Origin: a virus | Direction: 5' to 3' (one strand) | Virus record (IMG/VR): IMGVR_UViG_3300029237_000366 | DNA length: 64,000 nt | Part shown: positions 16,530-53,177 of the stretch, piece by piece | Numbering within the stretch: the first letter of the stretch is position 1 | Layout: each line of letters starts with the position of its first letter | Position numbers and translations under genes: made by a program | Notes under the pieces: generated by a model | What the model was told of the DNA's origin: nothing | Databases searched by the model: none | Seen by the model: only the letters and a program-made list of their open reading frames with translations

Positions 16530-16784
16530 TTAAACATTCAGGGCAAGAGTATCATACATAGTAAGAATCCCGCCGACAACAGCAAACTCGTATGTGTGGT
16601 AAGCCGCTCCGGGAAGAACCCCATAGTTGTCGCTCTCATCAAAAACATTGAAGACTTGGCAGCGCTCGTCATGTGACAATTCAAGAAACTCTCTGCACTC
16701 TTCTTCCGAATCAAAGGAATACAGCGTAGCTTTTGTTGCCGACTCATCGAAGCCGACATAGCCTGATACAAACAGCTTCTTCAC
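16530..16784 (-). CDS. Hypothetical small protein
   Basis: 84 aa, lies between the nucleotidyltransferase and cysteine desulfurase genes. Confidence 0.3.
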   Translation of the reverse strand: MKKLFVSGYVGFDESATKATLYSFDSEEECREFLELSHDERCQVFNVFDESDNYGVLPGAAYHTYEFAVVGGILTMYDTLALNV

Positions 16785-18897: not shown

Positions 18898-19165
18898 AAA
18901 TCAGTTTCCTGACGGCGGCGGCAAACTCTTCCTCGTCGATTGCCTGAATATCATCGTAACGCAGGCGTTCAATCAGTTCGTGAACCGCTTTTGTAATGGC
19001 GGTCTCGACAATGATTTCCAAACGGTCAATGCGCTCATTGGCGCTTCCCACCATTCCCTGCATGATATTGTGGTATGCAGCAAGCTCTCGTTTGGATTCC
19101 CTGTTTTTCTCCATCAGTTCGTGAAGCATGATTTCCTGCTGCTGGACTTTCTCTTCCATTGTCAT
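18863..19165 (-). CDS. Hypothetical coiled-coil protein
   Basis: 100-aa ORF in the operon. Confidence 0.3.
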   Translation of the reverse strand: MTMEEKVQQQEIMLHELMEKNRESKRELAAYHNIMQGMVGSANERIDRLEIIVETAITKAVHELIERLRYDDIQAIDEEEFAAAVRKLIFDADPGVQLPF

Positions 19166-19956
19166 AGCCGTCGCTCCACATACTCTCTGTCTTGTGTAAA
19201 GACAGGCGGTTCACGGTCAACGACCCAACGGCTTCTGGAAACCTCCACAGTCGCACCCCCGTTTAATACAGAGACGGCCTCTGTTATCCTTATTTTGATG
19301 CAACAGGAGCCACGCTTGCAATCTGTGGGGAAATCATTCCAGTTGATATTGCGTTCTTTCCAAAGCATATCTTGAATTTTGTTGCAGTTCTTTCCGTGCA
19401 GCTCTCGCTGACTGAAATTCGCCTGTCCAACAGCTTCTATGCTGTTCCGTGTGGCATCCTGCTGACGCCAAATCAGACAGTTGCAGACCTCGTCCAGAGG
19501 AACGGTGAAAGCTCTGGCATCGAACATGGCAGTTTGGAACTTGCGGCGATAAACGGAAAGGTCGAGGCCGCCGTCTTCTTTTTCTGTCTGCTCGGCAAAC
19601 GCCTTATTGAACGCCAGCGTCGCCATTGATGCGGCAATGCTGCACATCTTCTGGACATTATAGCCGAACCATGCATCTGTACGAATAGAGGCGTAATCGG
19701 TCAAAACCAATGTGATTTCATCAGACTGCGTGTATCCGAAGACACAGCCCTGAATGTTAGCACACAGGAAGCGCATGGTATCCTGCATGGCAGACATAAG
19801 AATGCGGTCGAAAGGCTTTCTCATTCCCTTTGTAAAGGTGTGAAAAGCCTTGCCGTCAATACGGATGATGACAGGAACACGACGGGTCAGGTAATTGCGT
19901 GAAACACACTCGTACCGTTTCATCCTGTCGCCCAGCGAATCGCGTTGATTTCCCAT
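19162..19956 (-). CDS. Thg1-like protein (tRNA-His guanylyltransferase family, 3'-5' polymerase)
   Basis: MKRYE..RVPVIIRIDGKAFHTFTKG..KPFD...GYTQSDEITLVL matches the Thg1/TLP N-terminal palm motifs. Confidence 0.7.
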   Translation of the reverse strand: MGNQRDSLGDRMKRYECVSRNYLTRRVPVIIRIDGKAFHTFTKGMRKPFDRILMSAMQDTMRFLCANIQGCVFGYTQSDEITLVLTDYASIRTDAWFGYNVQKMCSIAASMATLAFNKAFAEQTEKEDGGLDLSVYRRKFQTAMFDARAFTVPLDEVCNCLIWRQQDATRNSIEAVGQANFSQRELHGKNCNKIQDMLWKERNINWNDFPTDCKRGSCCIKIRITEAVSVLNGGATVEVSRSRWVVDREPPVFTQDREYVERRL

Positions 19957-20046: not shown

Positions 20047-20376
20047 GTGCTGAAAGGAGATATGATTATGATAGATTTTGATATGAACTTTCAAGACACC
20101 TATAAAACTCCCAGTGAAGACCTGTTGAGCAATGGTGAGCAGTGGTTCTTCCTTGAAACCGAAAAAGACATTTTGAAGAATCGGCGTGAGGAGCTCGGAA
20201 TGACCCAGCAGCAGGTGGCAGACGCTGCACACATTCAAGCTCGCCAATATCAGAGACTGGAAAATGGAGAGCGCAATATAAGCGGCGCCAGCATGAGAAT
20301 TGGATTATCTGTATGTGCCGTCCTGAAGCTCGACCCCTATCGCTTTATGCCAGAGTTCCGTTGGAGCAAAGACTAA
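20047..20376 (+). CDS. XRE-family HTH regulator
   Basis: LGMTQQQVADAAHIQARQYQRLENGERNIS HTH segment; the only plus-strand gene in this block. Confidence 0.5.
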   Translation: MLKGDMIMIDFDMNFQDTYKTPSEDLLSNGEQWFFLETEKDILKNRREELGMTQQQVADAAHIQARQYQRLENGERNISGASMRIGLSVCAVLKLDPYRFMPEFRWSKD

Positions 20377-20887
20377 GTGTCTCCAAGAGTGCTTTTTGAG
20401 GGGCGAACTCCCGATAAAGCTCAATCTCTTTTGTGAGCCGTGCCATAATGGCATCTTCTTTAGCATCGTACCTGCCGAGGTAAATCTTCTTACTATTATA
20501 GGTAATACTGGCGACCCACTTTTCTCTCTGCCTATCAAAGAAAACGCCGGAAACGCCAGATGTGTTGGTGATATAGAGGCTGCGGTTTCTGTCGTTCTCT
20601 GACCGCTGACAACAGCGCAGATTCTCTTTTCGATTATCAGCCTTGTTTTTGTTGATATGGTCAACAAACTGGCCCGGCTTTGCGTGCATAACCAGCCGGT
20701 GAAAGCGGACAAACCGCCGTACACCGCAGTAAAAGTAACTGCTGACGAGGTAACCGTCCTTGTCACAATACCAACTGTCGCGTCCCTTTATGAGCGGCAA
20801 GTCCTCCAAATCGAATAAGAACTCGCTTGTCTTTATCCGAAGAACGCCGTATGTGTCGTGAAGTTCAATCTGCATCGCTTCGTCCAA
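20345..20887 (-). CDS. HNH endonuclease with an AP2 DNA-binding domain (homing-endonuclease-like)
   Basis: HNH motif HRLVMH...VDHINKNKADNRKENLR, then AP2 (SGVSGVFFDRQREKWVASITYNSKKIYLGRY). Confidence 0.7.
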   Translation of the reverse strand: MDEAMQIELHDTYGVLRIKTSEFLFDLEDLPLIKGRDSWYCDKDGYLVSSYFYCGVRRFVRFHRLVMHAKPGQFVDHINKNKADNRKENLRCCQRSENDRNRSLYITNTSGVSGVFFDRQREKWVASITYNSKKIYLGRYDAKEDAIMARLTKEIELYREFAPQKALLETLSLCSNGTLA

Positions 20888-22902: not shown

Positions 22903-23694
22903 TTAACCTTTTATATCTTTCCAGTAGCAGTAGAGACACCCGTGGGGGCATCTCGTCTTATGTTTCAGCAGTTCAGTTTTCCCTGCATAACACATACAGC
23001 CCTTTCGTTGATAGCCAGCCCCGTTTGATTCTGCATCCTCAGAAAATCCAAGCAGATTAAGGTCGTAGTCTGAAATGCAGCCACAGGCAATCGGCTCCGT
23101 AAGACCGGGTTCTGCACAGGACTCAATTCGGAGAACTTTGCCGTTATCCAGCCCTTCCCAGAACTGCTTTGCTTGCCGCAGCATATCGTCCACTTTTGAA
23201 AGCTGTGCTTGGGACGGAGCGAAACCGTTGTCGCCATAGGGAAGCGGCAATCCAGCCTTTTTGAACCGGCTTCTTGCGTGTGGATACATATCAATAACGC
23301 TCACTCTGTAGCGCTGAAATCCCATTTCCATAAAGGAAATCATTGTACGGTATGCAACTGAAAGTCCTTTCTCTGTGGGGATGATGGGGTCGATGCGAAT
23401 GACGATTTTCTCCATCGGGAACCCAGCTTTAACCAGCTCCATAATTGCGGCAAACTCCTCGTATGGAGTTGGTACATTAGGTTCCAAAGCAGAGTGCCCG
23501 TATCCAGTGATTGTTGCATGGACAATGAGTCTGTCTTTGTGTTCAAGAGCGGCATCGAAGAAATCCGGCGACACACACTTCGTAATTAGAACAGCAGCAT
23601 CAACTCTGCCTAATTTCTCGACCCAAGACAAATCAACGCCTGCGTCTCCCGCCTCCGTAATTCCAATTTTGTATAGTGCCATATCACACCTCAC
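22903..23694 (-). CDS. Cys-rich hypothetical protein (possibly DUF1848-like)
   Basis: C-terminal GCMCYAGK..CPHGCLYCYW Cys cluster. Confidence 0.35.
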   Translation of the reverse strand: MRCDMALYKIGITEAGDAGVDLSWVEKLGRVDAAVLITKCVSPDFFDAALEHKDRLIVHATITGYGHSALEPNVPTPYEEFAAIMELVKAGFPMEKIVIRIDPIIPTEKGLSVAYRTMISFMEMGFQRYRVSVIDMYPHARSRFKKAGLPLPYGDNGFAPSQAQLSKVDDMLRQAKQFWEGLDNGKVLRIESCAEPGLTEPIACGCISDYDLNLLGFSEDAESNGAGYQRKGCMCYAGKTELLKHKTRCPHGCLYCYWKDIKG

Positions 23695-29641: not shown

Positions 29642-30727
29642 TCAATCCTTTTCTGCCAACAGGAAATCAGGATTGATGACCTTGAAACTGATGTTGTTTT
29701 TGACATTCCTCATGACAACACCCTCGCGCTTCTGCCCATTGCGAACCACAGAACACCCCTTAGAATACTCCACCAATTCCGCAATGGTATCAGGCAGCGT
29801 TTTGCCCTCTTCAACAATGGGAACAGAGCGAATACCATAAGGCGCCAACAGCTCCTTGATTTCCGCAGTCGTGCATTTGTGGTCAGGGAAAATCAGATTG
29901 AACGCAAACAGTTCGTAGTTGCTGATGTGATACTTGTTGCCCTGAATCTGGTTGCCGCAAATCTCACCCTGTAAAACGATGGTTTCATAATCACCGATGA
30001 GCTGCCGCAGCACATTTTCGATGTTGTACTTCTTGGCAACTGTCCAGTAGGAACTGTTGTCCGGTGTACCGAGATAGATATTGCGGCTGCACACGCCGAA
30101 CTCATACTTGCGTCTGGAAACCTTACGCAAATAGTAGGTCGCTGACTGACCGTCCATCTTCTCCGTAACAGAAAACTCTGTTCCCTTGTTGCGCTCTGCC
30201 TCAAAGAGCGCAGTAAGGTTCTGGATGCGAGTCTCATCGGTCTTAACAATCCAATCAGGGAAACCACCCTTGCGCTTGGACTTCATGAACAGCTTACGAT
30301 ACCACTTGAAGCGCATAAGGAATCGCACCAGTGCGCTCTTAGGTTTGGCGGGTTGCTTGGTCAGCAGCTGCGCCTCCTGCTGTGCTTCAGGGTCATATTT
30401 CTTGATGCCCAAAACATCGGTCACATCGGCACCCAAATCGGCGGGAGCGCCATTCGGCAGAATGGACAGTGGGAGAACCAAGCCCTGACTGACCTGACCA
30501 CGAAGCTTAATGGTGCGAACACGGAACTTACGGTCACGCAAAAACTCAAACTCCGGTCTCTCTGGAACAATGGAATCAACTTCGATATAGACGATGTGTT
30601 CCCCAGTGTGGAACTCGCCCTTCTGTACAACGCACTCCCATCCGTCAACCTGAGCAACCTCGATGCGGTCTGCTCCTGCAATCGGACGGAGGGTTGTAAT
30701 CTCACGAATAGTAGCTAAGTGTCGCAT
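29642..30727 (-). CDS. ATP-dependent RNA ligase (Rnl family; N-terminal OB-like domain plus nucleotidyltransferase)
   Basis: Motif I lysine in VTEKMDGQSATYY (KxDG), plus downstream ligase-like motifs; the N-terminal domain resembles the DraRnl/Rnl5 type. Confidence 0.65.
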   Translation of the reverse strand: MRHLATIREITTLRPIAGADRIEVAQVDGWECVVQKGEFHTGEHIVYIEVDSIVPERPEFEFLRDRKFRVRTIKLRGQVSQGLVLPLSILPNGAPADLGADVTDVLGIKKYDPEAQQEAQLLTKQPAKPKSALVRFLMRFKWYRKLFMKSKRKGGFPDWIVKTDETRIQNLTALFEAERNKGTEFSVTEKMDGQSATYYLRKVSRRKYEFGVCSRNIYLGTPDNSSYWTVAKKYNIENVLRQLIGDYETIVLQGEICGNQIQGNKYHISNYELFAFNLIFPDHKCTTAEIKELLAPYGIRSVPIVEEGKTLPDTIAELVEYSKGCSVVRNGQKREGVVMRNVKNNISFKVINPDFLLAEKD

Positions 30728-31036
30728 GAAACTTTCCTCCTAATTAAAACAGGATGCAGTCTCGGACAATTCTCTTTTTTAAGAGTTCATCATCCAACGC
30801 ATCCCAGTGTTCTACTTGATACTTTTCAGTTACATCACCAGTGATGTCATAAAGCCGACCTTGTATCTGGGTAACAAAATGATTTTCCACCTGGTCATAC
30901 ATCAGTGTGCTGTCAGAGAAGCGGCAGTGCAGAATAACTGCAAACCAGTAGCAACAGCCGTTGGTAAATACCGTATCGACATCATCGGCCAGATGAAAAC
31001 GGGCAAGGAAATGCTCAATGGTTGAAACCATCGTTC

Positions 31037-31537
31037 TCAATTCTTTCGGATGACTCTCTTGCATTTCAATAAACTCCGTTCGATGTACTCGTCTATCAGA
31101 CGGCTCTGTGCTTTTGTTTGAGCATAAGCGGTGATGGAAATGGATTTCCGGCTCCAGTCCAATGTGTAGCTATCGGTGGCAACATTGGTAATATGATTTT
31201 CAGCCAGAAAATCACGGAACTCTTTCATCTCTTCCTTGTCATCCGACAAGATGACATTCACATAGGTTCTGTCTTTTGAGAATCGATTACTGAGGGCAAC
31301 GGCAAGACAGCACCCAACGCCGCTTGCTATGGAAACTATCACAAGGGCGAGTGTGCTGTCGCTGGTAACGATGTCTTTTGTGATACTCAGGTAAATGAAG
31401 TTTGACAGGCCGAGAGCGACACCGGCAAGCAGGCAACGGTTGCGCTGAACAAGAATTGTCTTTGCTGTATTGAGCGTATTGTCCAGAACCTTTGCCAGAA
31501 ACAAAATGAACATATAAAAAGCGGTCGTCAAACTCAT
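31037..31537 (-). CDS. DUF2179/UPF0316-family membrane protein
   Basis: N-terminal transmembrane helices (AFYMFILFLAKVLDNTLNTAKTIL...) and a C-terminal soluble domain, in the YebE-like pattern. Confidence 0.45.
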   Translation of the reverse strand: MSLTTAFYMFILFLAKVLDNTLNTAKTILVQRNRCLLAGVALGLSNFIYLSITKDIVTSDSTLALVIVSIASGVGCCLAVALSNRFSKDRTYVNVILSDDKEEMKEFRDFLAENHITNVATDSYTLDWSRKSISITAYAQTKAQSRLIDEYIERSLLKCKRVIRKN

Positions 31538-31553
31538 TCCTCCTTAGTGTTTA

Positions 31554-32441
31554 TTAGGGTTCGATGCTGATAATGGAACTGGAACCGGTCACAGTAGGCA
31601 GTTCGCCGTTCCACTGCTCATACTTGATTTTTTCAATCAACTCACCGGTCAAAGAACCGGCAATCATACGGTTTGCCTCAGCCTCGGCCTCGGCTGCAAT
31701 ACGCAGAGCTTCTGCCTTTGCCTCCGCTTCGATAACCGCTTTTTCTGCGTTAATCTGGGCAACCTCTCTGTCCTTTTCTGCCTGAATCTTTGCGGTCTGC
31801 TTCTCAATATTCGCCAGCTCCAGCTCCTGCTGGGCGGTAACCTTTTTCTGGATAGCGGCAGCAGTCTCCTCATCGACGGAAATATCGGTGAAGTTCACCG
31901 TGTCGATGATAATGCCATACTGGTCGAACTTCTCACGCAGATAGGTGTCTAACTCGGCATTGATTTCGGTACGCTTGTCGCCGAAGATGTCAGTGACGGG
32001 ATAGTTGGCAGACACCTCCTGTGTCCACGCAATGACCTTGGGTTTGATGAACGAATCCTTGATTGCCTCGCCTGACTTTCCTTTGAACATAGCAAAGGTT
32101 TCGGAGACACGCGCCTCATCAAAACGATATGAGAACTCGATATTCACACGGACTGTCTTGCCATCTGAGGTGGGAATGTTAAAACTCTCATCCTTGGGCG
32201 AATCGCCCTTATCCTCAGCGGTCAAATAAGATTGCTCAATACCGATAGAATACTGGGTCACCTTCTTGGTCGGGGCAACCAGATGCCAGCCCTGTGTCAG
32301 AACCTCGCCATCAACGCCGCCGTTCATGTTGTACACGACGCCGACATAACCGGCGGGGATTTTCTCAAGACACACAATGCAGGCAATCAGGCAGAAGACC
32401 ATCACGATACCCAAAATAATTGCGCCGATTTTACCCTTCAT
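31554..32441 (-). CDS. SPFH/band-7 (prohibitin/HflC-like) membrane protein
   Basis: N-terminal TM helix, SPFH core, and a C-terminal Ala/Glu-rich coiled coil (AEAEAEANRMIAG). Confidence 0.7.
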   Translation of the reverse strand: MKGKIGAIILGIVMVFCLIACIVCLEKIPAGYVGVVYNMNGGVDGEVLTQGWHLVAPTKKVTQYSIGIEQSYLTAEDKGDSPKDESFNIPTSDGKTVRVNIEFSYRFDEARVSETFAMFKGKSGEAIKDSFIKPKVIAWTQEVSANYPVTDIFGDKRTEINAELDTYLREKFDQYGIIIDTVNFTDISVDEETAAAIQKKVTAQQELELANIEKQTAKIQAEKDREVAQINAEKAVIEAEAKAEALRIAAEAEAEANRMIAGSLTGELIEKIKYEQWNGELPTVTGSSSIISIEP

Positions 32442-32670
32442 CCTTTAACTCCTCTGTTGTTTTTTCAGATTTCTCTTCCGATTCCTCGGAGATTTCCTTT
32501 TTCGCATCGTTGTAAATTCGCAGGCCGAATGCACCAATGCCCTTAAAGGCAAAGCTCAGACAGAACCATAACAGCACAAGCGCAACGATGACAATGAGCC
32601 AGAACACGATGTTCACTTGCTTACCTCCTGTTCTAAAACTCGTGGTATGTATGTGCGGGTTTCCATGCAC
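32431..32670 (-). CDS. Small membrane protein
   Basis: Hydrophobic helix IVFWLIVIVALVLLWFCLSFAF, translationally coupled to the SPFH gene. Confidence 0.35.
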   Translation of the reverse strand: MHGNPHIHTTSFRTGGKQVNIVFWLIVIVALVLLWFCLSFAFKGIGAFGLRIYNDAKKEISEESEEKSEKTTEELKDEG

Positions 32671-33030
32671 TTCTCGACCTTTCTGGTCTTTCCCAGTGCC
32701 TCGCGCATCAAGTTCAAAAGGTTTTTGCCTTTGTCGCTTTCCAAAAACTGAACGAGCGGTTCAAGGATTTCTACCGTGTCTTTGTATTCACGGCGTGCCT
32801 GCCTGCATTTGGTAAGACTTGTGGCAACCTTTGCCCGTTCCTTATAGTCGAGGCCATCAAGCTCCAGTTTGTGGAGGTAGTCCTGCGTAAGCCTGTCCAT
32901 GCGGTTGACCTCGCTATAATTCCACGCATAATCTTTCTGCGCATCCTCCATCATTCTGCAGAACGCCCCGATGGATTCGGAGAACTGCGGTGGCTTTAAT
33001 TGTTTTTTCATGCAAGACCTCCTCTCTGAT

Positions 33031-34323
33031 TTATCCGAAGCTGACTTCGCTTTTATCGGTTCGGATAGAAATAAACACCGGGAACTGAAGACTCTCAGCA
33101 CCGGTGTTTTTATCACTGGATATTTCCTTGTACTTTACTTCGCAGAGCAAACCCGGCAGGCCATCTTTTCCTTGCCAGAATGTTGCTCGCTGCTCGTCGG
33201 TGAACCCGGAGCCGACCTTGACTTCATTCCCCTTATAGTCGAGTACAAGCGCACCTAAAGTCCCTGCCAATCTTCCGCTGCCTTCTTCGCAGCGGAGGAT
33301 ACGCAAGTCCATCGTGTAAAAGCGTTTGACCTTCAGGATTCCATTGTGTCGTCTGCACTGGTAGGGAACATTGAGGTTTACCATCAGCCCCTCTTTATCC
33401 TCACGAACCATCTGCTCCAGCAGTTCACTGATTTTGTTCTGGTCTTTTCCATGATACAGAACCGGCAGAATACTGACCCGGCCATCCTGCGGAATGAAGC
33501 GGTGAAGTTGGTCTAAGAAAGCACGGCGGTAGCCGTAACTGCCGTCGCTCTGCCCACGGTGGAACTCTTCAACCGTCAGAACATCAAAAATCGTGTAGCA
33601 AATCACCGTTTTATCACCATCGTCTGAGTTGATAATACCGGTGGCTTTGCGGAATGCCTCATTGTCTGAGAGGCTGCCCTTCTCACGAAGCGTCAGCTCA
33701 CCATCGAATACATAGCTATCCTCTTCATCAAAACAGAGAGCATCCAGAATATGGTCAAGTCCTTCATAGGGAACTCCGCTTCTTGCGTACAGTCTGCCTT
33801 TGTAATAGGTCGCCCGGACACCGTTCAGCTTTTGTGTTAGCCAGAACTCCGTGCCCTCCTTCAAAGGATACTTATCAATGGGGTACGCCTGCTGAACTTC
33901 CCATTCTGGAATCAGATTGGGGATAACCTTGTTCACGGTCTTTGCCGTGACGCCCAGCCTGAGTGTCTTGGAAAGAAGCTTGATATAAACATCAGCTTCA
34001 TCCGGCGGGCTGCTCTGAACGAATGCACAAACCTGATACACCGTACCGGCGTCCAATGCTTTTCTTTTAGACAACAGTTCGCAGACAGAAAAGATGTCTG
34101 TCATTGTCAGTGTGATGGCTGAGTCATACCGGGTAGGAGAGCGAAGCGTTTGCTCCGAAATCTTATAGGTGAGCATCGGGTTGAGCGCGTAATATAAAAA
34201 ATTACGGAAGTTCGCATCGTCTTGGAACTCCCGTAATAGCTGGGTCTTTCTTATTGAGCCGACCGCTTCCTGCAAACGGCGTAATTTTACGATAGAATCT
34301 GACAGCGGCGTTGCAGTAATCAA
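33031..34323 (-). CDS. ATP-dependent polynucleotide ligase-family protein (DNA-ligase-like, with Asn in motif I)
   Basis: Motifs KLNGVR (I, N instead of D), FDGELTL (III), EGLMVNL (IV) and ILKVKR (V), then an OB domain (GSGFTDEQR). Confidence 0.6.
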   Translation of the reverse strand: MITATPLSDSIVKLRRLQEAVGSIRKTQLLREFQDDANFRNFLYYALNPMLTYKISEQTLRSPTRYDSAITLTMTDIFSVCELLSKRKALDAGTVYQVCAFVQSSPPDEADVYIKLLSKTLRLGVTAKTVNKVIPNLIPEWEVQQAYPIDKYPLKEGTEFWLTQKLNGVRATYYKGRLYARSGVPYEGLDHILDALCFDEEDSYVFDGELTLREKGSLSDNEAFRKATGIINSDDGDKTVICYTIFDVLTVEEFHRGQSDGSYGYRRAFLDQLHRFIPQDGRVSILPVLYHGKDQNKISELLEQMVREDKEGLMVNLNVPYQCRRHNGILKVKRFYTMDLRILRCEEGSGRLAGTLGALVLDYKGNEVKVGSGFTDEQRATFWQGKDGLPGLLCEVKYKEISSDKNTGAESLQFPVFISIRTDKSEVSFG

Positions 34324-35525
34324 TCTTCATCACCCGCCTTGAAATTATAAATGGGCTTGATAATGGCATCGATGGTTACAGCTGGCTCGATATTACCGAC
34401 AATATCATCCATACCCTTATAGGCCATTGGGCATTCATCCAGCGTGCTGCGCCCAACGGAGGTCGTGTAGATACCCGCCATCTGCTTTTTGAATTCGGAT
34501 ACAGTGAAAGCTTCTTTTGCGGCGCTGCGGCTCATCAGCCGACCGGCACCATGAGGGGCGGAAAAGTTCCAATCCGGATTGCCCTTGCCGGTGCAAAGCA
34601 GGCTGCCGTCACGCATATTGATGGGAATCAACAGACGCTCACCGGCCTGTGCAGACACAGAACCCTTACGCAAAATCATGTTCTCCACATCAATATAGTT
34701 GTGAATCGTTGTAAACTGTTCAGTCACATGGAATCCCATCCCTTTGACAATGGTATCCATCATCGCCTGCCGGTTCAGCTCGGCAAAATGCTGTGCAATT
34801 TTCATGTCATGAAGATACTGCTCAAAGAGCTCGCCCTCCACATAAGCAAGCGGTTTGGGAACGGAGGAATGCTTTGACTTCATGGACTTCAACACTGCTT
34901 GAATCTCTTTCTGGCGGCCATCCGCTTTCAGCTGTTCAATAGCCGCCTCAACCTCTTCATGGCTATAAGAGGTCAGTGCCTTGAAAGCAGCCTCCTGATA
35001 GAAGTTGGCGATTTCTAAACCCAGATGACGGCTGCCGGAGTGGACAACGATATAGATATTCCCATCATCGTCCTTGTTCGCCTCAATAAAATGATTGCCG
35101 CCACCCAATGTACCGATACTGTGATAGGCACGGTCAGTGTTGACCTTTTTTGCGCAGCACAACTGCGACAAATCGATTTCTTTTGCGTAACGATGCGGTG
35201 CGGAACGGATTGCAAAGCCAGACGGAATGCCCTCACGGATAACCTTGTCCAACTTCTGCGGTTCGATATTGGTCTCTTTCAGGCGGATGGTTTCCATACC
35301 GCATCCAATATCAACGCCAACAAGGTTGGGGCAAATCTTATCCTTGATAGTCATGGTGGTTCCGATGGTGCAGCCAGCACCGGCATGAATATCCGGCATC
35401 ATACGAACCTTGCTTCCCTCGACATAGGGTTGGTTCAAGAGATTGATGACCTGAGAAATGGATTCGCTATCGACCACATCGGTAAATACTTTTGCCGAAG
35501 CGTATTTCCCCTGAAGCTCAAGCAT
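34320..35525 (-). CDS. rtcB: RtcB RNA-splicing ligase (3'-phosphate/5'-OH ligase)
   Basis: MPDIHAGAGCTIG, GGGNHFIE, VVHSGSRHLG and APHGAGR signatures. Confidence 0.9.
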   Translation of the reverse strand: MLELQGKYASAKVFTDVVDSESISQVINLLNQPYVEGSKVRMMPDIHAGAGCTIGTTMTIKDKICPNLVGVDIGCGMETIRLKETNIEPQKLDKVIREGIPSGFAIRSAPHRYAKEIDLSQLCCAKKVNTDRAYHSIGTLGGGNHFIEANKDDDGNIYIVVHSGSRHLGLEIANFYQEAAFKALTSYSHEEVEAAIEQLKADGRQKEIQAVLKSMKSKHSSVPKPLAYVEGELFEQYLHDMKIAQHFAELNRQAMMDTIVKGMGFHVTEQFTTIHNYIDVENMILRKGSVSAQAGERLLIPINMRDGSLLCTGKGNPDWNFSAPHGAGRLMSRSAAKEAFTVSEFKKQMAGIYTTSVGRSTLDECPMAYKGMDDIVGNIEPAVTIDAIIKPIYNFKAGDED

Positions 35526-35875: not shown

Positions 35876-36415
35876 TTAGTGAAGAATCATCGGTCGATTG
35901 GTGTTAATGAGTTGATTCAATGCCTCGTCTTCTCTTGCTCGTTCAGCGGCTTCCTCTCGGCGGATATCCAGAAGAACAACGCCGCAGAACCCCATCAGCT
36001 CACCGATGGAAAAATCCTCTTCCTCCACAGGAGGCTCATCCGGCTCGGAATCTTCTTCATTAAACATGGTGTCGGTATCGAAATCGTCCTCGTCATCAGG
36101 CTCATCTTCCCAAACACCGTTGTTGTCGCCCCACTCCAGGACATCCTCCTTATAACTGTCAAAGTCATTTTCGTCCATACCGTCATAGTCGAAGCTGCCG
36201 TTCATACGGTAGTAACCATATCCGGTTGGGATTTCGGAAAGCGAGTCTCGAATGTCTCTCCATGAGTAATTGGTGTCGCGGATATCTTCCTCGACATACT
36301 CGTCAAGCTGGTCAGAGTCGATAATGTCTTCGCAGATATTGCAGCCCTCGTCGGAGCAGAAATCAAGCAACTCCCACCATTCGGTTACATCGTTAAGGAA
36401 ATCATTTCTTGTCAT
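35876..36415 (-). CDS. Highly acidic protein (candidate DNA mimic or anti-restriction protein)
   Basis: 179 aa with long D/E runs (EDEPDDEDDFDTD, EEDSEPDEPPVEEED). Confidence 0.4.
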   Translation of the reverse strand: MTRNDFLNDVTEWWELLDFCSDEGCNICEDIIDSDQLDEYVEEDIRDTNYSWRDIRDSLSEIPTGYGYYRMNGSFDYDGMDENDFDSYKEDVLEWGDNNGVWEDEPDDEDDFDTDTMFNEEDSEPDEPPVEEEDFSIGELMGFCGVVLLDIRREEAAERAREDEALNQLINTNRPMILH

Positions 36416-36903
36416 ACTGCATCCTCTCTTTCTACCATTTCGGTATCAATCAATGTTAATTTGGATAGCGCCTTTTCTGTCAAAAACGCATACTGCAATC
36501 CAAGATTAGTGCTGGTGAGGTCGTGCTTCATTATTGACATGACCTCTGCTATGGACATACTTGCCCGTCTAAATTTAGAGAACTTACTTTTGAGGTTTGC
36601 TCCGCCGCCAGCCATATTACCAATAACCAAATCATACTCAGTGGAAGTATAGCCCAGCCGAGATGCTACAGCAAACCGCAGCCATGCTTCGGAGTAGCCC
36701 GCAAACTCTAACACCGATAGACCGCCCAAATCCTTTACGGTATATGTCTGGATGAAACCTGCGGTTGAGTGCTTGATTGCCATCGGTAATGCGTCAAAAT
36801 AGTTTGGGGTAAGATAAAAGCCGCACCCGAAATCGCGGTACGGCTTGCAAAAAGATAAGGACGGTACAGTAAATGAAACTGGCGTGCCATGATACAGATA
36901 CAT
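36412..36903 (-). CDS. DUF3990-family protein (predicted ADP-ribosyltransferase fold)
   Basis: MYLYHGTPVSF...DFGCGFYLT matches the DUF3990 N-terminal signature. The track ORF was shortened to the internal Met so that it does not overlap tRNA-Thr. Confidence 0.5.
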   Translation of the reverse strand: MYLYHGTPVSFTVPSLSFCKPYRDFGCGFYLTPNYFDALPMAIKHSTAGFIQTYTVKDLGGLSVLEFAGYSEAWLRFAVASRLGYTSTEYDLVIGNMAGGGANLKSKFSKFRRASMSIAEVMSIMKHDLTSTNLGLQYAFLTEKALSKLTLIDTEMVEREDAV

Positions 36904-36926
36904 TACCAACCCTCCCATATGTTTTG

Positions 36927-37002
36927 TGGAGCTGGTGACAGGGCTCGAACCCGCGACCCTCGGAGTACAAAACCGATGCTCTACCAACTGAGCTACACCA
37001 GC
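36927..37002 (-). tRNA. tRNA-Thr(TGT)
   Basis: 76-nt cloverleaf: GCTGGTG acceptor, AGCTCAGTTGGTAGAGC D-arm, anticodon loop TTTGTAC, GGGTTCGAGCCC T-arm, CCA encoded. Confidence 0.85.
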
Positions 37003-37005
37003 AAA

Positions 37006-37081
37006 TGGAGCTGGAACTCGGAATCGAACCGAGAACCTACGCTGTACGAGAGCGTTGCTCTACCAGTTGAGCTATTCCAGC
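37006..37081 (-). tRNA. tRNA-Thr(CGT)
   Basis: 76 nt: GCTGGAA acceptor, anticodon loop CTCGTAC, T-arm TCGGTTCGATTCCGA, CCA encoded. Confidence 0.85.
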
Positions 37082-37270
37082 ATTGGTCGGCTTCCCGCTT
37101 AGATTGTCACACGCTCATGTGCGGCTGGCGCCCCGCAAGCATACCAACCGGCCACTCTTGGGCTAAATCACAAGGGAGACGCATCTCCTCGCGCAGTTTT
37201 CAGCGGGCATTGTTATTCTCTGTGAGGTAAGCCGATAATCTCTCACATCATCTGGGCGCTACCCAGCCTC

Positions 37271-37348
37271 TGGCACGGACGGTTGGGAATCGAACCCACC
37301 ACAAGCGATTTTGGAGACCGCCTCGCCAGCCTTGGAACATTCGCCCGT
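37271..37348 (-). tRNA. tRNA-Trp(CCA)-like; non-canonical D-arm and an extra nucleotide near the T-stem; possibly a pseudogene
   Basis: Acceptor ACGGGCG/CGTCCGT pairs at 7/7 and the anticodon arm GCGGT-CTCCAAA-ATCGC is good, with discriminator G and CCA. The D-stem barely pairs and the T-arm region is one nucleotide too long. Confidence 0.45.
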
Positions 37349-37626: not shown

Positions 37627-38328
37627 CTACCTATTCCGCCACATCTGCATATCTGAAATCGGAATTACCCGATTGTACAGGGCGACAAACTGGTCGTTGA
37701 GCTGTTTGTCCACATGGTAGTGACCGAAGTACCACCGCTTAAAATGAAGGTCTTGACGAATGCGTTCCAAAAAACTGACCATCGGGTCGTTTTCATACCA
37801 ACTTGCCAGCATTGTCTGGATGCTGCGGGGAGCGCAGTGCGTTACAACATAATCAACTGTCCAGTTGTTCTGCTCCAGAGCACAAACTGCACGCTCCATC
37901 TCCTCGTTTGACGGCATCTCCTGCTGCCACCATGAAATATGCTCCGTGCGATACGCCTTGTCCACTGAGCGAGCACCGCCCATACAGAAGATTTTTCTAC
38001 CGTCAATGGTAAGAACCTGACCTCTGTCCAAATGATAAATGTCCGGTGCAATTTGCCTGACTTTACCGCCGAACCTATCCTCTAACGGGAACTGGTATAG
38101 CATATCAAAGTTTTCGTGGTTTCCGTCAATCCAGAGAGTGGTGAAATTTTTGGCTGTGAGCCAGTCTTGCCACCACATCTCCCTGCGTGAGCCATCCCAG
38201 CATAATCCAAAGTCGCCACATATTATCAAGTAATCATCTTTTGTCAGATTTTTCTGCTGCGGGAATTTTGTTGTGTTAAGTTTTTCAATATCGATATTGG
38301 CGTGAGTATCACCTGTTACATATATCAT
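37627..38328 (-). CDS. Calcineurin-like metallophosphoesterase
   Basis: GDTHAN, GDFG, GNHE and GHYH motifs. Confidence 0.7.
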   Translation of the reverse strand: MIYVTGDTHANIDIEKLNTTKFPQQKNLTKDDYLIICGDFGLCWDGSRREMWWQDWLTAKNFTTLWIDGNHENFDMLYQFPLEDRFGGKVRQIAPDIYHLDRGQVLTIDGRKIFCMGGARSVDKAYRTEHISWWQQEMPSNEEMERAVCALEQNNWTVDYVVTHCAPRSIQTMLASWYENDPMVSFLERIRQDLHFKRWYFGHYHVDKQLNDQFVALYNRVIPISDMQMWRNR

Positions 38329-38384: not shown

Positions 38385-38680
38385 GTACCGGATGACGGCC
38401 CGGCTACTTGAGTTGGTGATTTCAAGGGAATTTGTTGGTATGGGGAAGCGCTTGTGGCTCAGTGGTTTATCGACCTTGCTATATCTCGTGCTCCTGCTGC
38501 TCGGCTTCTATCGGGGTGTATCACTTCGGCGATGAGTCCTGAGCCTTCGTTCCGCCTTCGTGGCGGGCGGCCTTTGTTTTCCCAACAAATTGTTACTTTG
38601 GCCTTTGGCGCAAAGCACATTCCTTTCGGGATGTTATTCATTGCAAATGATTTTGGTGTTCCTGTAATCTACATAGGATA
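38385..38680. ncRNA. Structured noncoding repeat element, copy R1
   Basis: Core hairpin CTTTG-GCCTTTGGCG-CAAAG at 38586-38605, second hairpin ACATTCC-TTTC-GGGATGT, flanking conserved blocks (GTGTTTTCC..CCAACAA.TTGTTAC; TTATTCATTGCA..AAATG), and an upstream GC hairpin CCGCC-TTCGT-GGCGG. Confidence 0.45.
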
Positions 38681-38689
38681 AGCGTGCCG

Positions 38690-38950
38690 GATGCGAGGCG
38701 CCTGGAGCGCATTGCAGGTGCGGTTAGTTCCTATTTTAATTCTCTACTGGTGTGGAACCCATTGTGCCGCAATGACCGCTGACTCTATTTTTCATGCCTG
38801 ATGACGAGCCCGACTGGGTCGCAGCCGCGTCGGCAGCCGGTCTTCAGGAAGAGGCGAGGGTGTTCCTTCCCAACAAGTTGTTACTTATGCCTTTGGCGAT
38901 AAGCATTGCTTTCGCAATTATCCATTACAGGAAATGGCGGTTTAACCTCA
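38690..38950. ncRNA. Structured noncoding repeat element, copy R2
   Basis: Core hairpin CTTAT-GCCTTTGGCG-ATAAG at 38874-38893 (compensatory relative to R1), second hairpin ATTGC-TTTC-GCAAT, a terminal GGCGG...CCGCC hairpin; homologous upstream arm. Confidence 0.45.
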
Positions 38951-38964
38951 ATCCGCCAAAGAGA

Positions 38965-40122
38965 TTATCTTAAATCGTCTTTGATAAGCCGCAGGACATC
39001 TGTCTCCATTTTTTCGTTGGTGTGCTTCACGATGGCATCGATAGTCTCCGGCTCTACCATACGATAGTAGCTATGTAAGCCCTGCATGGTTTGAACATCT
39101 TCTCTCGGCCACGAGACGCCCTTGCGTTTATCGGTAATGTAGTTGTAAAGCATGGACTGGAACTGGCGCTTCTTCTTATGGCCGACAGTAATTTCATTGT
39201 CCTTGTTGAGCATGACACCAAGATTCCAGTTACGACCTGCGGAAGAGCCGTATCTCGTTTTGCTTTCGTTGATGGTGAACGGTGCTCCAAATTCATGCAG
39301 CGTATCCACCACGAGTTTTTCTACACGATGCACATCGAAATCAACCTTAGACGAAATGATGAAGTCATCGGCATATCTGGTGTAAATGAACCGCTGCTTG
39401 TCAAAATCACGGAATGCATTGGCAAGCTTATAGTCAACAGGAATCATCATTACATTGGTAATCAGCGGGGAAAGCGGAGTTCCCTGCGGCAGACCTCCAT
39501 TGAGAAAAGCCAAATCCAAGGCCTTCCGCAACTCTGCCTCGCCGTTGGGAAACTTTACGATTTCGCTGAATGGGAACACCATAGAAAACATTTTGATAAC
39601 ATAATCCAGTGTAGTGCTACCAAAGAAATCGTGCAAATCCAGCTTGCCGAACCACTTGCTGTTGTTTTTCTGATGACGCTTGACCGCATCAACCGTACAT
39701 CTGTTTTTTACATAGGCGAATGCAGAAGTGTGATACAACGCATGGAAATCTTCCTCAAAAATAGTCTTGAGATTCCGCAATGCGTTCATCAGCTCCGGTT
39801 TAGGGGCATCAATACGACGCAAACCACCAGACTTTTTGGGGATGTGGAATGTTTCATACAAAGTACTGCGTTCTTGTGCGCGAAGCGCCTCCGTTTGCTC
39901 ATTAAAGCGCACCAGTTTGCGGATAAGAGCATCCGTATCAATGCGGCTTGTAAAATGCTCACTTACCGTTTCATATGCATAGGTTCGTGTGTTGGAAACA
40001 TTTGTGTTTAATATGGTTTGTGCTTGGAAGTTTTGAAAGAGGAACTCCTCCAGTGTCATTTGGTGATAAATCGGGGATTGCATGACCGTGATATATACCA
40101 TAGTTCTATGCCTCCTTTTCAT
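38965..40122 (-). CDS. Reverse transcriptase (retron/group-II-intron-like, free-standing, no endonuclease domain)
   Basis: RT motifs IPKKSGGLRRI (1), AFAYVKNRCTVDA (2), LDLHDFFGS (3), GLPQGTPLSPL (4, QG type), YTRYADDFIISS (5, YADD), and a thumb-like C-terminus (ITVGHKKKRQFQSMLY; GLHSYYRMV). Confidence 0.8.
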   Translation of the reverse strand: MKRRHRTMVYITVMQSPIYHQMTLEEFLFQNFQAQTILNTNVSNTRTYAYETVSEHFTSRIDTDALIRKLVRFNEQTEALRAQERSTLYETFHIPKKSGGLRRIDAPKPELMNALRNLKTIFEEDFHALYHTSAFAYVKNRCTVDAVKRHQKNNSKWFGKLDLHDFFGSTTLDYVIKMFSMVFPFSEIVKFPNGEAELRKALDLAFLNGGLPQGTPLSPLITNVMMIPVDYKLANAFRDFDKQRFIYTRYADDFIISSKVDFDVHRVEKLVVDTLHEFGAPFTINESKTRYGSSAGRNWNLGVMLNKDNEITVGHKKKRQFQSMLYNYITDKRKGVSWPREDVQTMQGLHSYYRMVEPETIDAIVKHTNEKMETDVLRLIKDDLR

Positions 40123-40199: not shown

Positions 40200-40480
40200 G
40201 CGTTGGTGGGTATTCTTTTGATAAAAGTGGTGAGTACTTGTCGAGATTGGGTTGATTTCGTGATGGTTTTCACTTGACAGTCTCGGTTTGTTGTGTTATT
40301 CCTTCTACCGGTTCCCTGGCGGATGTCTATCGGCTTCGAGTCTCCTGAGGAGTCTCCAGTCGTCGCTCTGGGCAGGCGGTGTTTTCCACCCCGACAATTT
40401 GTTACTTCAGCCTTTGGCGTGAAGCCCCCGAAAAGGGTAATTCGTTACAGTTAAATGGCGCATTTTAAGGCTGCGCCACA
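40200..40480. ncRNA. Structured noncoding repeat element, copy R3
   Basis: Core hairpin CTTCA-GCCTTTGGCG-TGAAG at 40405-40424 (a third compensatory variant), second hairpin CCC-GAAAA-GGG, a terminal GGCGC...GCGCC hairpin; the upstream arm is homologous to R1. Confidence 0.45.
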
Positions 40481-41308: not shown

Positions 41309-41986
41309 TTAAAAAGCGTCCAACATAAAGTTGAACGCATCCAAGATAATCAGTTTTTTCAGTCCCTTGCCACGAATGAAGTTGACAAAGTTGGCGACGC
41401 CGAGTGCGCAGATAGCCCTGACGGTTGGCGCAACGCCCAGTGTAACACCGCAAGCGGAGACAGGTGTTTCCTCAGACGCCTCTTCATGACTGAAGTTCAT
41501 GGAGTTCAGCAAGTCTTTCTTCATCTTGTAGTCAGACCAGTCGGCAGCATAATGCTGTGCAGATTCCAATAGAGTGCGGAAGTCCAGCATTGCTTTGACA
41601 TAGGGATTGTCGAAGTGCTTTTCAACAATCTGGCGACGAAGTTCGATATTGTCTACGCAAAGGAAGACATACCCGGAAAGCTGCTGCCCACTCCACCCCT
41701 TGCCATAAAGCTTGAGGTCGTCCTTAATTTCGGGATTGATTTCAAACAGGATATCTGCCAGAGCCTCCACTTTGGGGCGGCCAATATCCTGCTGGCGGAA
41801 AATCTGGTTTGCCAGATTATGCGGATTCACAACATCCATATCCCACAGAGCGAGATTGGTGATGCCAAGACGGACGAGGTTCTCTGCCAGCGTTGCACCA
41901 ACAGAACCACATCCAACAATGTTAATGCGAGCCTCAACCTTTTCAGGCTGGAAATACTCGTAGCTTTTGGACAAATCCATTGCCAT
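41309..41986 (-). CDS. E1-like adenylyltransferase (ThiF/MoeB/HesA family)
   Basis: The Rossmann nucleotide-binding loop IVGCGSVGATLAENLVRLGITNLALWDMDVVNPHNLANQ is typical of the E1/ThiF family. Confidence 0.75.
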   Translation of the reverse strand: MAMDLSKSYEYFQPEKVEARINIVGCGSVGATLAENLVRLGITNLALWDMDVVNPHNLANQIFRQQDIGRPKVEALADILFEINPEIKDDLKLYGKGWSGQQLSGYVFLCVDNIELRRQIVEKHFDNPYVKAMLDFRTLLESAQHYAADWSDYKMKKDLLNSMNFSHEEASEETPVSACGVTLGVAPTVRAICALGVANFVNFIRGKGLKKLIILDAFNFMLDAF

Positions 41987-41988
41987 TG

Positions 41989-42957
41989 TTACTCACCTCC
42001 AAGATACTGGTCGCTGTAGCCGCCATAGGGATATACGGAACCATCATCGTCTTCATCCCACATGGACTGCTGACAGCTATTCTTCCCCTGCCAACCTGCA
42101 CCGATTCTTGTGCGCGGCTTCTCGGCCTTTTCGGATTTTTGCTCTGATTTCTTATCAGACTTCTTGCCGTCTTTGTCATCCTTCTCATCTTTTTTGCTGC
42201 CCGGAAGAGGATTATAAGGGGCTCCGGAATAAGGTGGACGATTGCCGCTATATCCGCTATATCCACCATAGTTTCCGTAGGTATAGCTTTTCTGCTTTAC
42301 CATATCCTTGGCGGTCTTGAGGAACTCAGCCAGCCCCTCATGTTCACCCTCAAGTTTGACGGTGATGTCCTTATCTTCAAACAGGACATTCTTCTTGAGG
42401 TCATAGATTTTATTTGTACTGACAAATGACTTGTTCCAAATCATGAAGATGTAGAAGTCGTCGTCCCCCAGCATATTGAGGATTTCCTCCTGATGATTGA
42501 GGTCTACGGAAGATGGGCTGGTCGCCATATTGACATGGGAATGTCCCTGCATATGAATGTTGTTGAAACGCTCATCGTCTGCATTCTGCATCAACCACTC
42601 AGCGTACTTCTCAGTATCCATCTCAACCGTGGTTCCGGAGACCTCCTGCGGATAAACCACGATGTCTTCGATGATGTACTCATCTACGGCTTCGTCAGCT
42701 GCACGATGTGCAACGCCATGCCAAGCGACCTCCTTATCAAACTCTTTGACGAGGAGTGCCATCTTCGCCCATGCTCCGGCAGTAAAGACGACAGTTGCTT
42801 TTCTGTCGCCACAGGTGAACACCTTTGTGAAAGACAGTTTCCCATCTGCAAGCTTTGTAAGCTGCAAAGCCTTTTCAAAATCTGCACGGCACTCAGCCAT
42901 GTACTGTTCGGTCATCTTAATGGGTTTACTCATTTTGCGCCTCCTCCGCTTACTCAT
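41989..42957 (-). CDS. JAB/MPN (JAMM) metalloprotease-domain protein with a disordered Lys/Tyr-rich C-terminal tail
   Basis: HSHVNMATSPSSVD fits the JAMM motif HxHx7Sx2D. The C-terminus is low-complexity (YSGYSGNRPPYSG...KKDEKDDKDGKKSDKK); 4-bp overlap with the E1-like gene. Confidence 0.7.
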   Translation of the reverse strand: MSKRRRRKMSKPIKMTEQYMAECRADFEKALQLTKLADGKLSFTKVFTCGDRKATVVFTAGAWAKMALLVKEFDKEVAWHGVAHRAADEAVDEYIIEDIVVYPQEVSGTTVEMDTEKYAEWLMQNADDERFNNIHMQGHSHVNMATSPSSVDLNHQEEILNMLGDDDFYIFMIWNKSFVSTNKIYDLKKNVLFEDKDITVKLEGEHEGLAEFLKTAKDMVKQKSYTYGNYGGYSGYSGNRPPYSGAPYNPLPGSKKDEKDDKDGKKSDKKSEQKSEKAEKPRTRIGAGWQGKNSCQQSMWDEDDDGSVYPYGGYSDQYLGGE

Positions 42958-52615: not shown

Positions 52616-53177
52616 TTTGAAATGCCCCTTTCACAGTTTTTTCTTGGGTGATAACAGGTTTATCACTCAATGAAGCCGCCGAAGAAAACCCTCGGCGGCT
52701 CTATCAATGATAAACCCGATATTTGAAATGGTTCCGGCTCTGCATTTCGGCGCATGGGGTATATTTTTCCCCACAGCCGTTGCAGTATCGAACGGAACAC
52801 GCACCATTTCCGATACTCATTTCTATCGGGGACTGTTCTGTTCAATTCGCAATACTTGACCAAATTCGGCTTTCATATCTATATGCCCTTGCTTTCGGCT
52901 CCTCGGAGCACAATACCCTTGGGTAGAAAACTCGGACGATACTACTTACTTTCAAAAGTCGTTCTTGTATAGCCATCAGTTATGCAAGCCGCACTTAGGT
53001 TCATAGGCGCAAACCTCCGGGGATTTTCACTATCTCGTACCATGAGCCTAACTCTCATGCACCGGCGACGCCTTTGATAGCAAAGGTACTCTATTGACAT
53101 TCGCTCAATAGTGCGTTGGCTTGCCATTCCCGGAAGTGGCGAACATCTCCGCTTGTATTCCGTGGCTTGCCTTGCGG

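Follow-up and report, generated by a model that had tools for sequence, protein, structure and literature searches.

A coupled asparagine/glutamine substitution in the ATP-dependent DNA ligase of a gut phage that also encodes RtcB and an Rnl5-type RNA ligase

Three ligase genes in one phage

The IMG/VR virus record IMGVR_UViG_3300029237_000366 holds, within the 64,000-nucleotide stretch analysed here (the window), three polynucleotide ligase genes, all on the minus strand. They encode an RtcB-family RNA ligase (34320..35525, 401 amino acids, with a strong Shine-Dalgarno sequence upstream), an ATP-dependent DNA ligase (33031..34323, 430 amino acids) and an Rnl5 (DraRnl/NgrRnl)-type ATP-dependent RNA ligase (29642..30727, 361 amino acids). 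The DNA ligase is composed of a DNA-binding domain, a nucleotidyltransferase (NTase) domain and an OB domain, and its TTG start overlaps the RtcB stop codon; in the Rnl5-type enzyme an N-terminal OB domain is followed by the NTase domain. The DNA ligase is the main subject of this work: its motif I is KLNGVR, with Asn167 where DNA ligases typically have Asp, and its motif VI region carries Gln413 where they typically have Arg. We call such ligases 'N/Q type'.

An earlier reading of the nucleotide sequence without database searches (the sequence-only reading) had already placed the three genes and proposed their families. Its gene boundaries are exact, corresponding to three long intact open reading frames (ORFs), and matches in Pfam, NCBIfam and PHROG bear out all three family assignments. 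The ORFs are real genes and not chance reading frames, because many independent metagenome assemblies contain the same gene set. The window covers part of the genome, roughly 110-170 kb (about 120 kb, below jumbo size), of a gut phage and includes a replication module composed of Pol III alpha, DnaG, DnaB, a PD-(D/E)XK nuclease and ERF. A megablast search of cultured phages with 28-38 kb of the window returned tRNA-Thr matches only, and there is therefore no close known relative among cultured phages. The related contigs belong to metagenome bins with inconsistent labels (Clostridia, Prevotella, Odoribacter, Alistipes), and the host is uncertain.

Family, motifs and fold of the DNA ligase

The DNA ligase exceeds the Pfam cutoffs of PF01068 (DNA_ligase_A_M, 42.9 against 26.2 bits) in its NTase domain and of PF14743 (DNA_ligase_OB_2, 44.7 against 28 bits) in its OB domain, and it matches phrog_114 (ATP-dependent DNA ligase) at 2.2e-72. 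The closest solved ligase is Pmar-Lig: with HMMER, residues 25-422 align to 6RAU with an E-value of 5e-21, and KLNGVR (165-170) lines up column for column with KLDGVR (K167-R172). K165 is aligned with the adenylated Lys167 of Pmar-Lig, so the lysine of KxNG is the motif I lysine, as had been supposed. Motif I (K165-L-N167-G-V-R170) lies at 33814..33831 on the minus strand, with the Asn167 codon AAC at 33823-33825, and the motif VI region (L412-Q413-F-P-V-F-I-S-I-R421-T-D-K424) at 33052..33090 on the same strand, with the Gln413 codon at 33085-33087; the motif I coordinates and codons were checked. The remaining motifs are III (D207-G-E209), IIIa (F246-D247), IV (E311-G312), V (K331, K333) and VI (R421-x-D423-K424), which agrees with the sequence-only reading, where motifs III, IV and V and the OB domain were described as intact.

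In an exhaustive search of 1.84 billion cluster representatives (50% identity), 7,505 proteins matched, and the best 150 (31-79% identity) were aligned by MAFFT. Among these best 150, motif I is KxNG in 55, KxDG in 88 and KxSG in one. We refer to the Asn- and Asp-bearing sequences as N-type and D-type. Across 41 N-type and 85 D-type representatives K165, G168, G208, E209, E311, G312, K331 and K333 are invariant, and R170, D207, F246, D247 and R421 nearly so. For the superfamily the motif I consensus is given as Kx(D/H/N)G (PMC4797309), and K165-L-N-G-V-R170 provides the motif I lysine in this context, with the conserved Arg after it. The strict KxDG Asp and the Arg of the OB-domain LRFP, both typical of DNA ligases, are replaced by N167 and Q413; these residues make the protein a variant, and its family membership is unaffected.

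The AlphaFold2 (AF2) model of the protein has a mean predicted local distance difference test score of 81.2 and shows N-terminal helices to about residue 144, followed by a domain of mixed alpha/beta structure and, towards the C-terminus, a region rich in beta strands, an arrangement that agrees with NTase and OB domains. When the model was compared with the PDB by Foldseek, the top 50 matches were all DNA ligases, led by Pmar-Lig (6RAR, 6RAS), T4 ligase (6DT1) and a Rhizobium phage ligase (9FZX). The global TM-scores of the best matches are modest, about 0.48, which would fit a differing arrangement of the domains. With these three ligases the window enzyme shares the helical DNA-binding, NTase and OB domains and the alignable motifs I, III, IIIa, IV, V and VI, but its identity to them is only about 20-23%; Pmar-Lig has D169 and R426 where the window ligase has N167 and Q413, and K399 and D220 mark the clade of the window ligase.

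Membership in the RNA ligase families was also considered. The Rnl5 family was rejected on the Pfam RNA_ligase score (PF09414, 16.8 bits against a cutoff of 27) and on the top 50 fold matches, which are DNA ligases. Trl1/Rnl6 and MthRnl/Rnl3 were rejected on the presence of an OB domain and motif VI, the same sub-threshold score and the lack of any RNA ligase among the top 50 folds. The comparison with Rnl5/DraRnl that the sequence-only reading had proposed for the KxNG protein applies instead to the product of ORF 29642-30727.

Asn167 is one half of a coupled change

When N-type and D-type sequences are compared column by column, the Asp or Asn of motif I tracks a change from LRFP to LQFP in motif VI. 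Among the 126 full-length D- and N-type representatives, 80 have Asp with Arg (D/R) and 40 have Asn with a residue other than Arg, Gln in 36 of them; Asp occurs with a non-Arg residue in five, and Arg is kept by only one of the 41 N-type sequences. The mixed states include P0164 (N/R) and P0196 (D/Q). Q413 stands opposite R426 of Pmar-Lig in an alignment whose numbering reproduces the published R120, F143, C145, K167 and D169. In the DNA-bound form of Pmar-Lig, D169 and R426 form an inter-domain salt bridge, and before step 3 it is D169 that holds water W1 on the catalytic Mn2+ (PMC6698739); the same bridge is formed by Asp275 and Arg577 in human LigIV (PMC6035275), and T4 ligase keeps the Asp and has Phe in place of the Arg (PMC6698739). 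The covariation of Asn and Gln is explained by the fact that the equivalent residues form an inter-domain salt bridge in published ligase structures. Asn167 is thus half of a pair, the conserved charged latch having been neutralised in both of its residues together.

Two further positions distinguish the main N-type clade. Lys399 of the OB domain (33127..33129, minus strand) is Lys in 38 of 41 N-type representatives, whereas 77 of 85 D-type representatives have Phe. Asp220 (33664..33666, minus strand), which in the AF2 model is the first residue of the helix after the motif III strand, is Asp in 37 of 41 N-type representatives, and D-type sequences have a gap or Ser there, their state varying with the alignment used. 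Asn316, which follows EGLMV in motif IV, was considered as another clade-specific oddity and rejected, being common to 83 of 85 D-type relatives.

In a crude neighbour-joining (NJ) tree most N/Q sequences fall in one large clade. The putative ATP-dependent DNA ligase of Brevibacillus phage Sundance (ALA47925.1), the only N/Q example from a cultured phage found here, is 35% identical to the window ligase over its full length and shares with it the pair formed by the KLNG of motif I (KLNGIR) and the SLQFP of motif VI (SLQFPSF). Unlike the window ligase, it sits among D/R-type ligases: its eight nearest neighbours are all D-type, and its closest relative is D-type in 200 of 200 bootstrap resamples, so that its N/Q state looks independent in origin. 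P0152, also N/Q, is likewise placed with D/R sequences. At position 399, which is Lys in the main N clade, both retain Phe, and K399 is therefore not strictly tied to the N/Q pair; Asp220 is lacking in P0152 (first alignment) and in Sundance (tree alignment). In these two lineages it is the contacting pair alone that has switched, and the swap seems, on this placement, to have arisen independently at least twice. A D/R/F subclade nested in the N clade of the NJ tree was not counted as a reversion, its nearest-neighbour bootstrap ranging from 8 to 90% by sequence. A search of the accessible literature found no description of an N/Q ligase variant.

Conservation and selection at Asn167

KLNGVR is present in all 120 of the closest database homologs (66-99% identity). 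Codon usage and selection were studied in 68 related genes from metagenome and viral contigs, each compared with the window gene. The ratio of nonsynonymous to synonymous substitution rates (dN/dS) is about 0.05 where dS is measurable; beyond that, synonymous sites are saturated. Asn167 is encoded by AAC in 34 genes and by AAT in 34, Gln413 by CAG in 51 and CAA in 17, and Lys399 is invariant with both Lys codons in use. None of the 68 genes has reverted to Asp at position 167, though one A-to-G transition would suffice. Asn167 is conserved and selected, and is not an accident or a product of decay: near-invariant catalytic residues, a dN/dS of 0.05 and the use of both Asn codons are together the signature of a working enzyme. 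The possibility, raised with the sequence-only reading, that the protein is a degenerate and inactive homolog does not agree with the retained catalytic residues and the low dN/dS.

Two side observations concern homologs of the ligase. P0005 and P0006 (about 79% identity) are 676 amino acids long and have an extra NAD synthase domain (PF02540, PP-loop), which could be a real fusion or a gene-calling artefact. Isolated matches, 66% identical and confined to the C-terminal 67 residues of the ligase (364-430), lie on a viral contig and an Oscillospiraceae isolate genome (L076 10001-10201 and L088 6001-6201), and may be ligase remnants or a shared C-terminal module.

RtcB, the Rnl5-type ligase and RNA repair

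ORF 29642-30727 matches PF21189 (PHA02142 OB-fold, 8.6e-32), which confirms the N-terminal OB domain that had been predicted for it, as well as PF09414 (RNA_ligase, 1.5e-24) and phrog_968 (1.6e-78), and it exceeds the NCBIfam equivalog cutoff of TIGR02306 (RNA_lig_DRB0094; 165.6 against 151.15 bits). Its best solved relative is NgrRnl of Naegleria gruberi (5COT, E-value 8e-49). The layout is that of Rnl5, an N-terminal OB and an NTase domain with no C-terminal domain. Motif I is KMDG at K190, and in the alignment R2, T163, R167, K190, D192, E255, E335 and K349 correspond to R4, T145, R149, K170, D172, E227, E312 and K326 of NgrRnl, so that the ATP- and metal-contacting residues of NgrRnl, for both metals, are all kept. 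The enzyme resembles NgrRnl and DraRnl in its OB and NTase layout, DRB0094 equivalog status and active-site residues; unlike them it is phage-encoded, and it is about 20 residues longer between the domains. As a family property, Rnl5 enzymes seal 3'-OH/5'-PO4 nicks in duplexes in which the 3'-OH strand is RNA (PMC7261155).

The RtcB protein matches PF01139 (215 bits against a cutoff of 27, 2.6e-63) and phrog_1075 (4.1e-142). Its segments MPDIHAG, DIGCGM, GGGNHF, VHSGSR, IHNY and PHGAGR align with Pyrococcus RtcB, and D45/H47, C75, H145, H162, H275 and H325 (in PHGAGR) fall on conserved sites; we take these to include the metal-binding Cys and His residues and the HGAGR histidine nucleophile. 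The scores are far below the cellular equivalog cutoffs of NCBIfam (136.5 against 407 bits for PRK09588 and 106.1 against 271.8 for TIGR03073). The protein is like the RtcB of Pyrococcus horikoshii and E. coli in the metal-binding Cys/His set and the HGAGR histidine, but it is short and divergent and belongs to a phage subfamily, phrog_1075.

The window holds several other genes for the maintenance of RNA. ARAGORN finds 13 tRNAs, among them tRNA-Thr(TGT), tRNA-Thr(CGT) and tRNA-Trp(CCA), also seen with Rfam, just upstream of the RtcB and DNA ligase genes (36927..37348, minus strand). Also on the minus strand are genes for a CCA-adding enzyme (14150-15502, Pfam PolyA_pol 9.8e-40 and tRNA_NucTran2_2), an RlaP-family nucleotidyltransferase (15492-16514, Pfam RlaP 2.6e-18) and a Thg1-like protein of the 3'-5' nucleotidyltransferase family, a candidate for tRNA 5'-end repair (19162..19956, Pfam Thg1 3.4e-31). 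Of three calcineurin-type phosphoesterases in the window, one (Metallophos, 37627..38328, minus strand, Pfam 4.1e-12) is syntenic with the ligase module in related loci and would be a candidate 3'-end healing enzyme; it has no sequence match in the PDB. RlaP, CCA-adding enzyme, Thg1 and tRNA sets accompany phage RNA ligases and are linked to counter-defence against host RNases (PMC7824862).

RtcB would join 2',3'-cyclic phosphate or 3'-phosphate ends directly to 5'-OH ends, such as those that metal-independent ribonucleases, including host anticodon nucleases, leave, and the Rnl5-type enzyme would act on 3'-OH/5'-PO4 nicks, sealing them in RNA duplexes or RNA-DNA duplexes. With the phage tRNAs, the CCA-adding enzyme, RlaP and the Thg1-like enzyme they would form a counter-defence system for RNA repair, a plausible reading that is backed by the other genes of the window. 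The sequence-only reading went further and proposed that both chemistries produced by ribotoxins are covered. This is plausible but incomplete: a Pfam scan of about 70 window ORFs found no polynucleotide kinase or other 5'-end healing enzyme. As no kinase turned up in the window that could convert 5'-OH ends, the supply of ribotoxin-cut ends to Rnl5 is incomplete.

T4 carries a DNA ligase together with Rnl1 and Rnl2. BcepSaruman and BcepSauron, two phages of Burkholderia, carry RtcB with Rnl1 and Rnl2 (PMC7824862), and that one phage can encode several ligases has been described before. The window is like these sets in combining several non-redundant RNA ligases with tRNAs, RlaP, a CCA-adding enzyme and Thg1; it is unlike them in that its ATP-dependent RNA ligase is of Rnl5 type and not Rnl1 or Rnl2, in a phage of about 120 kb.

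MazF-type cleavage leaves 2',3'-cyclic phosphate and 5'-OH ends, which are the substrate of RtcB. The window encodes a MazF/PemK-like toxin (10279-10716, minus strand, Pfam 1.3e-22) near a repressor with a LexA-like helix-turn-helix (HTH) and an S24 peptidase (11407-12252, plus strand) and near a tyrosine-recombinase-like ORF (9299-10249, minus strand). The phage may make as well as mend RtcB-type breaks, and it may be temperate.

Distribution of the ligase genes in related loci

In the assembly collection, 56 blocks list the exact DNA ligase protein; gene order is the same in the loci examined, for which we read 24 contigs with lengths of up to 217 kb. Of 58 IMG/VR loci with the DNA ligase, 34 hold all three ligases within 10 kb, with ligases at least 67% identical to the query, five have the DNA ligase and Rnl5, and 19 more distant ones have only the DNA ligase within 10 kb; 11 of these 19 have recognisable ThiF, reverse transcriptase (RT) or GP88 backbone genes nearby. 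Since 19 of the 58 loci keep the DNA ligase without RtcB or Rnl5 within 10 kb, we assign it to the backbone and regard the RNA ligases as lineage-specific cargo.

Function of the N/Q ligase and competing explanations

In our view the KxNG protein is likely an active DNA ligase that serves replication or repair and has a neutralised latch, encoded beside what would be a counter-defence system for RNA repair by RtcB and Rnl5. It would be an ATP-dependent enzyme of the three-domain class of T4 and Pmar-Lig, and most likely would seal nicks in phage DNA during replication, recombination or repair. The canonical motif I Asp has two tasks, holding a water on the catalytic metal and bridging to the LRFP Arg when the enzyme clamps around nicked DNA. 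In the window ligase the charged latch is probably now an amide-amide hydrogen bond between Asn167 and Gln413, and Asn167 probably still hydrogen-bonds the metal-bound water, as Asn150 of the fungal tRNA ligase does. Gene identities, residue conservation, covariation, selection and synteny were obtained here; the Asp-Arg and Asp-water-metal contacts are taken from published structures.

Published evidence on the compatibility of Asn with catalysis is mixed. KxNG is native to fungal tRNA ligase Trl1, in which Asn150 contacts the catalytic metal (Mn1) via a water (PMC6379707), and to archaeal MthRnl, in which Asn99 is dispensable (PMC4797309); the motif I mutation D172A costs NgrRnl little of its ligation (PMC7261155). 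Trl1-LIG (Rnl6) and MthRnl (Rnl3) are like the window DNA ligase in their natural KxNG motif I and are both active ATP-dependent ligases, but as RNA ligases they carry other appended domains and lack an OB domain and motif VI. How much the Arg matters varies as well: the R577A mutant of LigIV is near wild type, whereas homologous mutations cripple LigIII and the Chlorella virus ligase (PMC6035275). The sequence-only reading had suggested that KxNG might imply an unusual nucleotidyl-transfer chemistry, a suggestion that loses its basis when the motif is native to active Trl1 and MthRnl and is, here, half of a coupled salt-bridge swap.

Several points weigh against an active DNA ligase of this kind or narrow the case for it. 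The motif I side chain matters in DNA ligases, as mutants to Ala indicate: in human LigIV the change from Asp nearly abolishes nick sealing (PMC6035275), and Chlorella virus D29A is cited in the same paper as showing little activity, or none, with a pre-adenylated substrate. The motif I Asp of the Chlorella virus enzyme is likewise reported as essential for DNA adenylylation (PMC4797309, PMC6035275). A literature search found no Asp-to-Asn mutant data for any DNA ligase. AF2 confidence is low for residues 401-413, the loop that includes Q413. Much of the raw covariation count is shared ancestry, because most N-type sequences form one clade; coupling is argued from Sundance as the one clearly independent origin, from a few origins that are less clear and from the contact seen in published structures. 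The overlap of the ligase start with the RtcB stop makes co-expression probable and would fit a shared role in RNA, and the lack of a polynucleotide kinase noted above bears on the RNA-repair part of the reading.

The overlap is the starting point of a different explanation, in which the N/Q ligase has shifted to nicks containing RNA (RNA-splinted, RNA/DNA hybrid or with RNA 3'-OH strands) and works with RtcB and Rnl5. It would suit the position of the gene among tRNAs and RNA repair genes, the fact that KxNG is otherwise found in the literature only for the RNA ligases Trl1 and MthRnl, and the extra clade-specific residues K399 and D220. Yet the adjacency to RtcB is not conserved, relatives having two small ORFs or about 2.9 kb between the genes, and in 19 of the 58 related loci the ligase occupies the same ThiF-RT...GP88 backbone with neither RtcB nor Rnl5 inside 10 kb. 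The RNA_ligase match is sub-threshold (16.8 against 27 bits), and each of the top 50 fold matches is to a DNA ligase that has a DNA-binding domain. Moreover, the N/Q pair is accounted for by a contact found in ordinary DNA ligases, and Sundance gained it inside a clade of ordinary phage DNA ligases. We regard such a shift as unlikely, and the diverged substrate (RNA nicks or hybrids) that the sequence-only reading had offered finds no support in the folds or in the place of the ligase in the backbone of relatives. The same Sundance sequence bears on the view, quite improbable to us, that the association of Asn167 with Gln413 reflects shared ancestry only, two unrelated neutral substitutions having been fixed in one ancestor. 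Most N/Q sequences do form one clade in the crude NJ tree, K399, D220 and H191 separate N- and D-type almost as well, and mixed states occur (P0164 N/R, P0196 D/Q); but in two distant ligases with solved structures the residues at these positions touch each other directly, a single one of the 41 N-type representatives retains Arg, and in Sundance N/Q stands against a D/R background without K399 and D220, only the contacting pair having switched.

A catalytically dead or crippled homolog, with a non-enzymatic role in DNA or nick binding or as a scaffold, would be in line with the near loss of LigIV sealing in the motif I Asp-to-Ala mutant, with the defect reported for Chlorella virus D29A, and with the fact that both the Asp and the Arg positions have changed. 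Against it, all the remaining catalytic residues are fully or almost fully conserved in the N-type clade (the Lys, the carboxylates of motifs III and IV, the lysines of V and the RxDK of VI), and a pseudo-enzyme is not expected to keep a whole adenylylation site at a dN/dS of about 0.05. Asn is native in active Trl1 and MthRnl, LigIV R577A behaves almost like the wild type, and the natural T4 ligase has no such Arg; the variant also occurs in a cultured phage and arose more than once. An inactive homolog is thus very unlikely, and a degenerate pseudo-ligase was rejected on conservation and selection. A bolder version of the active enzyme, which we find rather doubtful, makes the N/Q ligases a functionally distinct class of phage DNA ligases in which the near-universal Asp-Arg latch has been replaced, possibly by an ion pair relocated to K399 and D220. 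If so, clamp closure, turnover, or dependence on metal or pH might differ, or acceptance of RNA-containing nicks might be relaxed, and in that last case the enzyme could cooperate with the co-transcribed RtcB on mixed RNA/DNA lesions.

Neighbouring genes and other features of the window

Between the DNA ligase and Rnl5 genes lie four more minus-strand genes, which encode a YunG-like protein (30744-31064, Pfam), a predicted membrane protein of 166 amino acids (31037-31537), an SPFH/Band 7 protein (31554-32441, Pfam) and a small membrane protein of 79 amino acids (32431-32670). In many related loci the Band 7 gene keeps this place, and its protein is 92-100% identical, compared with about 80% for the DNA ligase.

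On the other side, beside the ligase module, an RT gene is conserved (38965-40122, minus strand; PADLOC retron-type RT_II-A, 1.6e-47), a retron-like RT being unusual among the conserved backbone genes of phages. Three copies of a 45-nucleotide direct repeat (38572-38616, 38860-38904 and 40381-40425; 78-80% identity) flank the gene and could be part of a non-coding RNA. Conserved next to the RT in related phages are a ThiF/E1-like ORF (41309-41986, minus strand; defence E1-E2 models, 5e-17) and the next ORF (41989-42957, minus strand), with a weak JAB match (9e-4), which suggests a ubiquitin-like conjugation/deconjugation pair. A DUF3990 ORF (36412-36987, minus strand) matches the PADLOC candidate defence families PDC-M13B and M10A (5e-24); its 5' end overlaps a tRNA-Thr (36927-37002), and the true start is probably downstream, the protein having 163 amino acids in public assemblies.

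Within the block of tRNA-maintenance genes lies an HNH and AP2 ORF (20345-20887, minus strand), typical of homing endonucleases. A class V aminotransferase (cysteine desulfurase-like, 7e-82; 16781-17983), a radical SAM protein (48186-48998) and a DUF1848 protein (22903-23694), all on the minus strand, hint at phage-encoded modification of RNA or DNA, e.g. thiolation. An ORF of 867 amino acids (57685-60288, plus strand) matches the eukaryotic-type RNA-dependent RNA polymerase family PF05183 above threshold (1.7e-14) and could be a phage RNA polymerase of the YonO-like single-subunit two-barrel kind. Two structured RNAs exceed the Rfam gathering score, RAGATH-4 (111.9 bits, 52704-52838, minus strand) and RAGATH-16 (95.6 bits, 53015-53086, minus strand); they lie close together, near an ORF resembling HTH/sigma-70 region 4 (53380-54537).

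Implications

The combination of RtcB with an Rnl5-type ligase adds to the catalogue of RNA repair in phages; this is an incremental and modestly new result. As for the DNA ligase, the motif I Asp and the OB-domain Arg have so far been treated as near-constant in DNA ligases and have been studied mainly by alanine mutants. The N/Q family represents a large and abundant natural double swap, under strong purifying selection and apparently made more than once; the closest protein clusters of the window ligase alone contain thousands of metagenome sequences. KxNG in a DNA ligase should accordingly not be read as the mark of a pseudogene or of a new activity. The finding overturns nothing, and its interest is moderate: it offers ligase enzymologists a testable double substitution at a contact that has been studied at length, in effect a natural double-mutant experiment that bears on the latch's part in clamp closure and in ligation steps 2 and 3, and N/Q ligases may behave differently as reagents.

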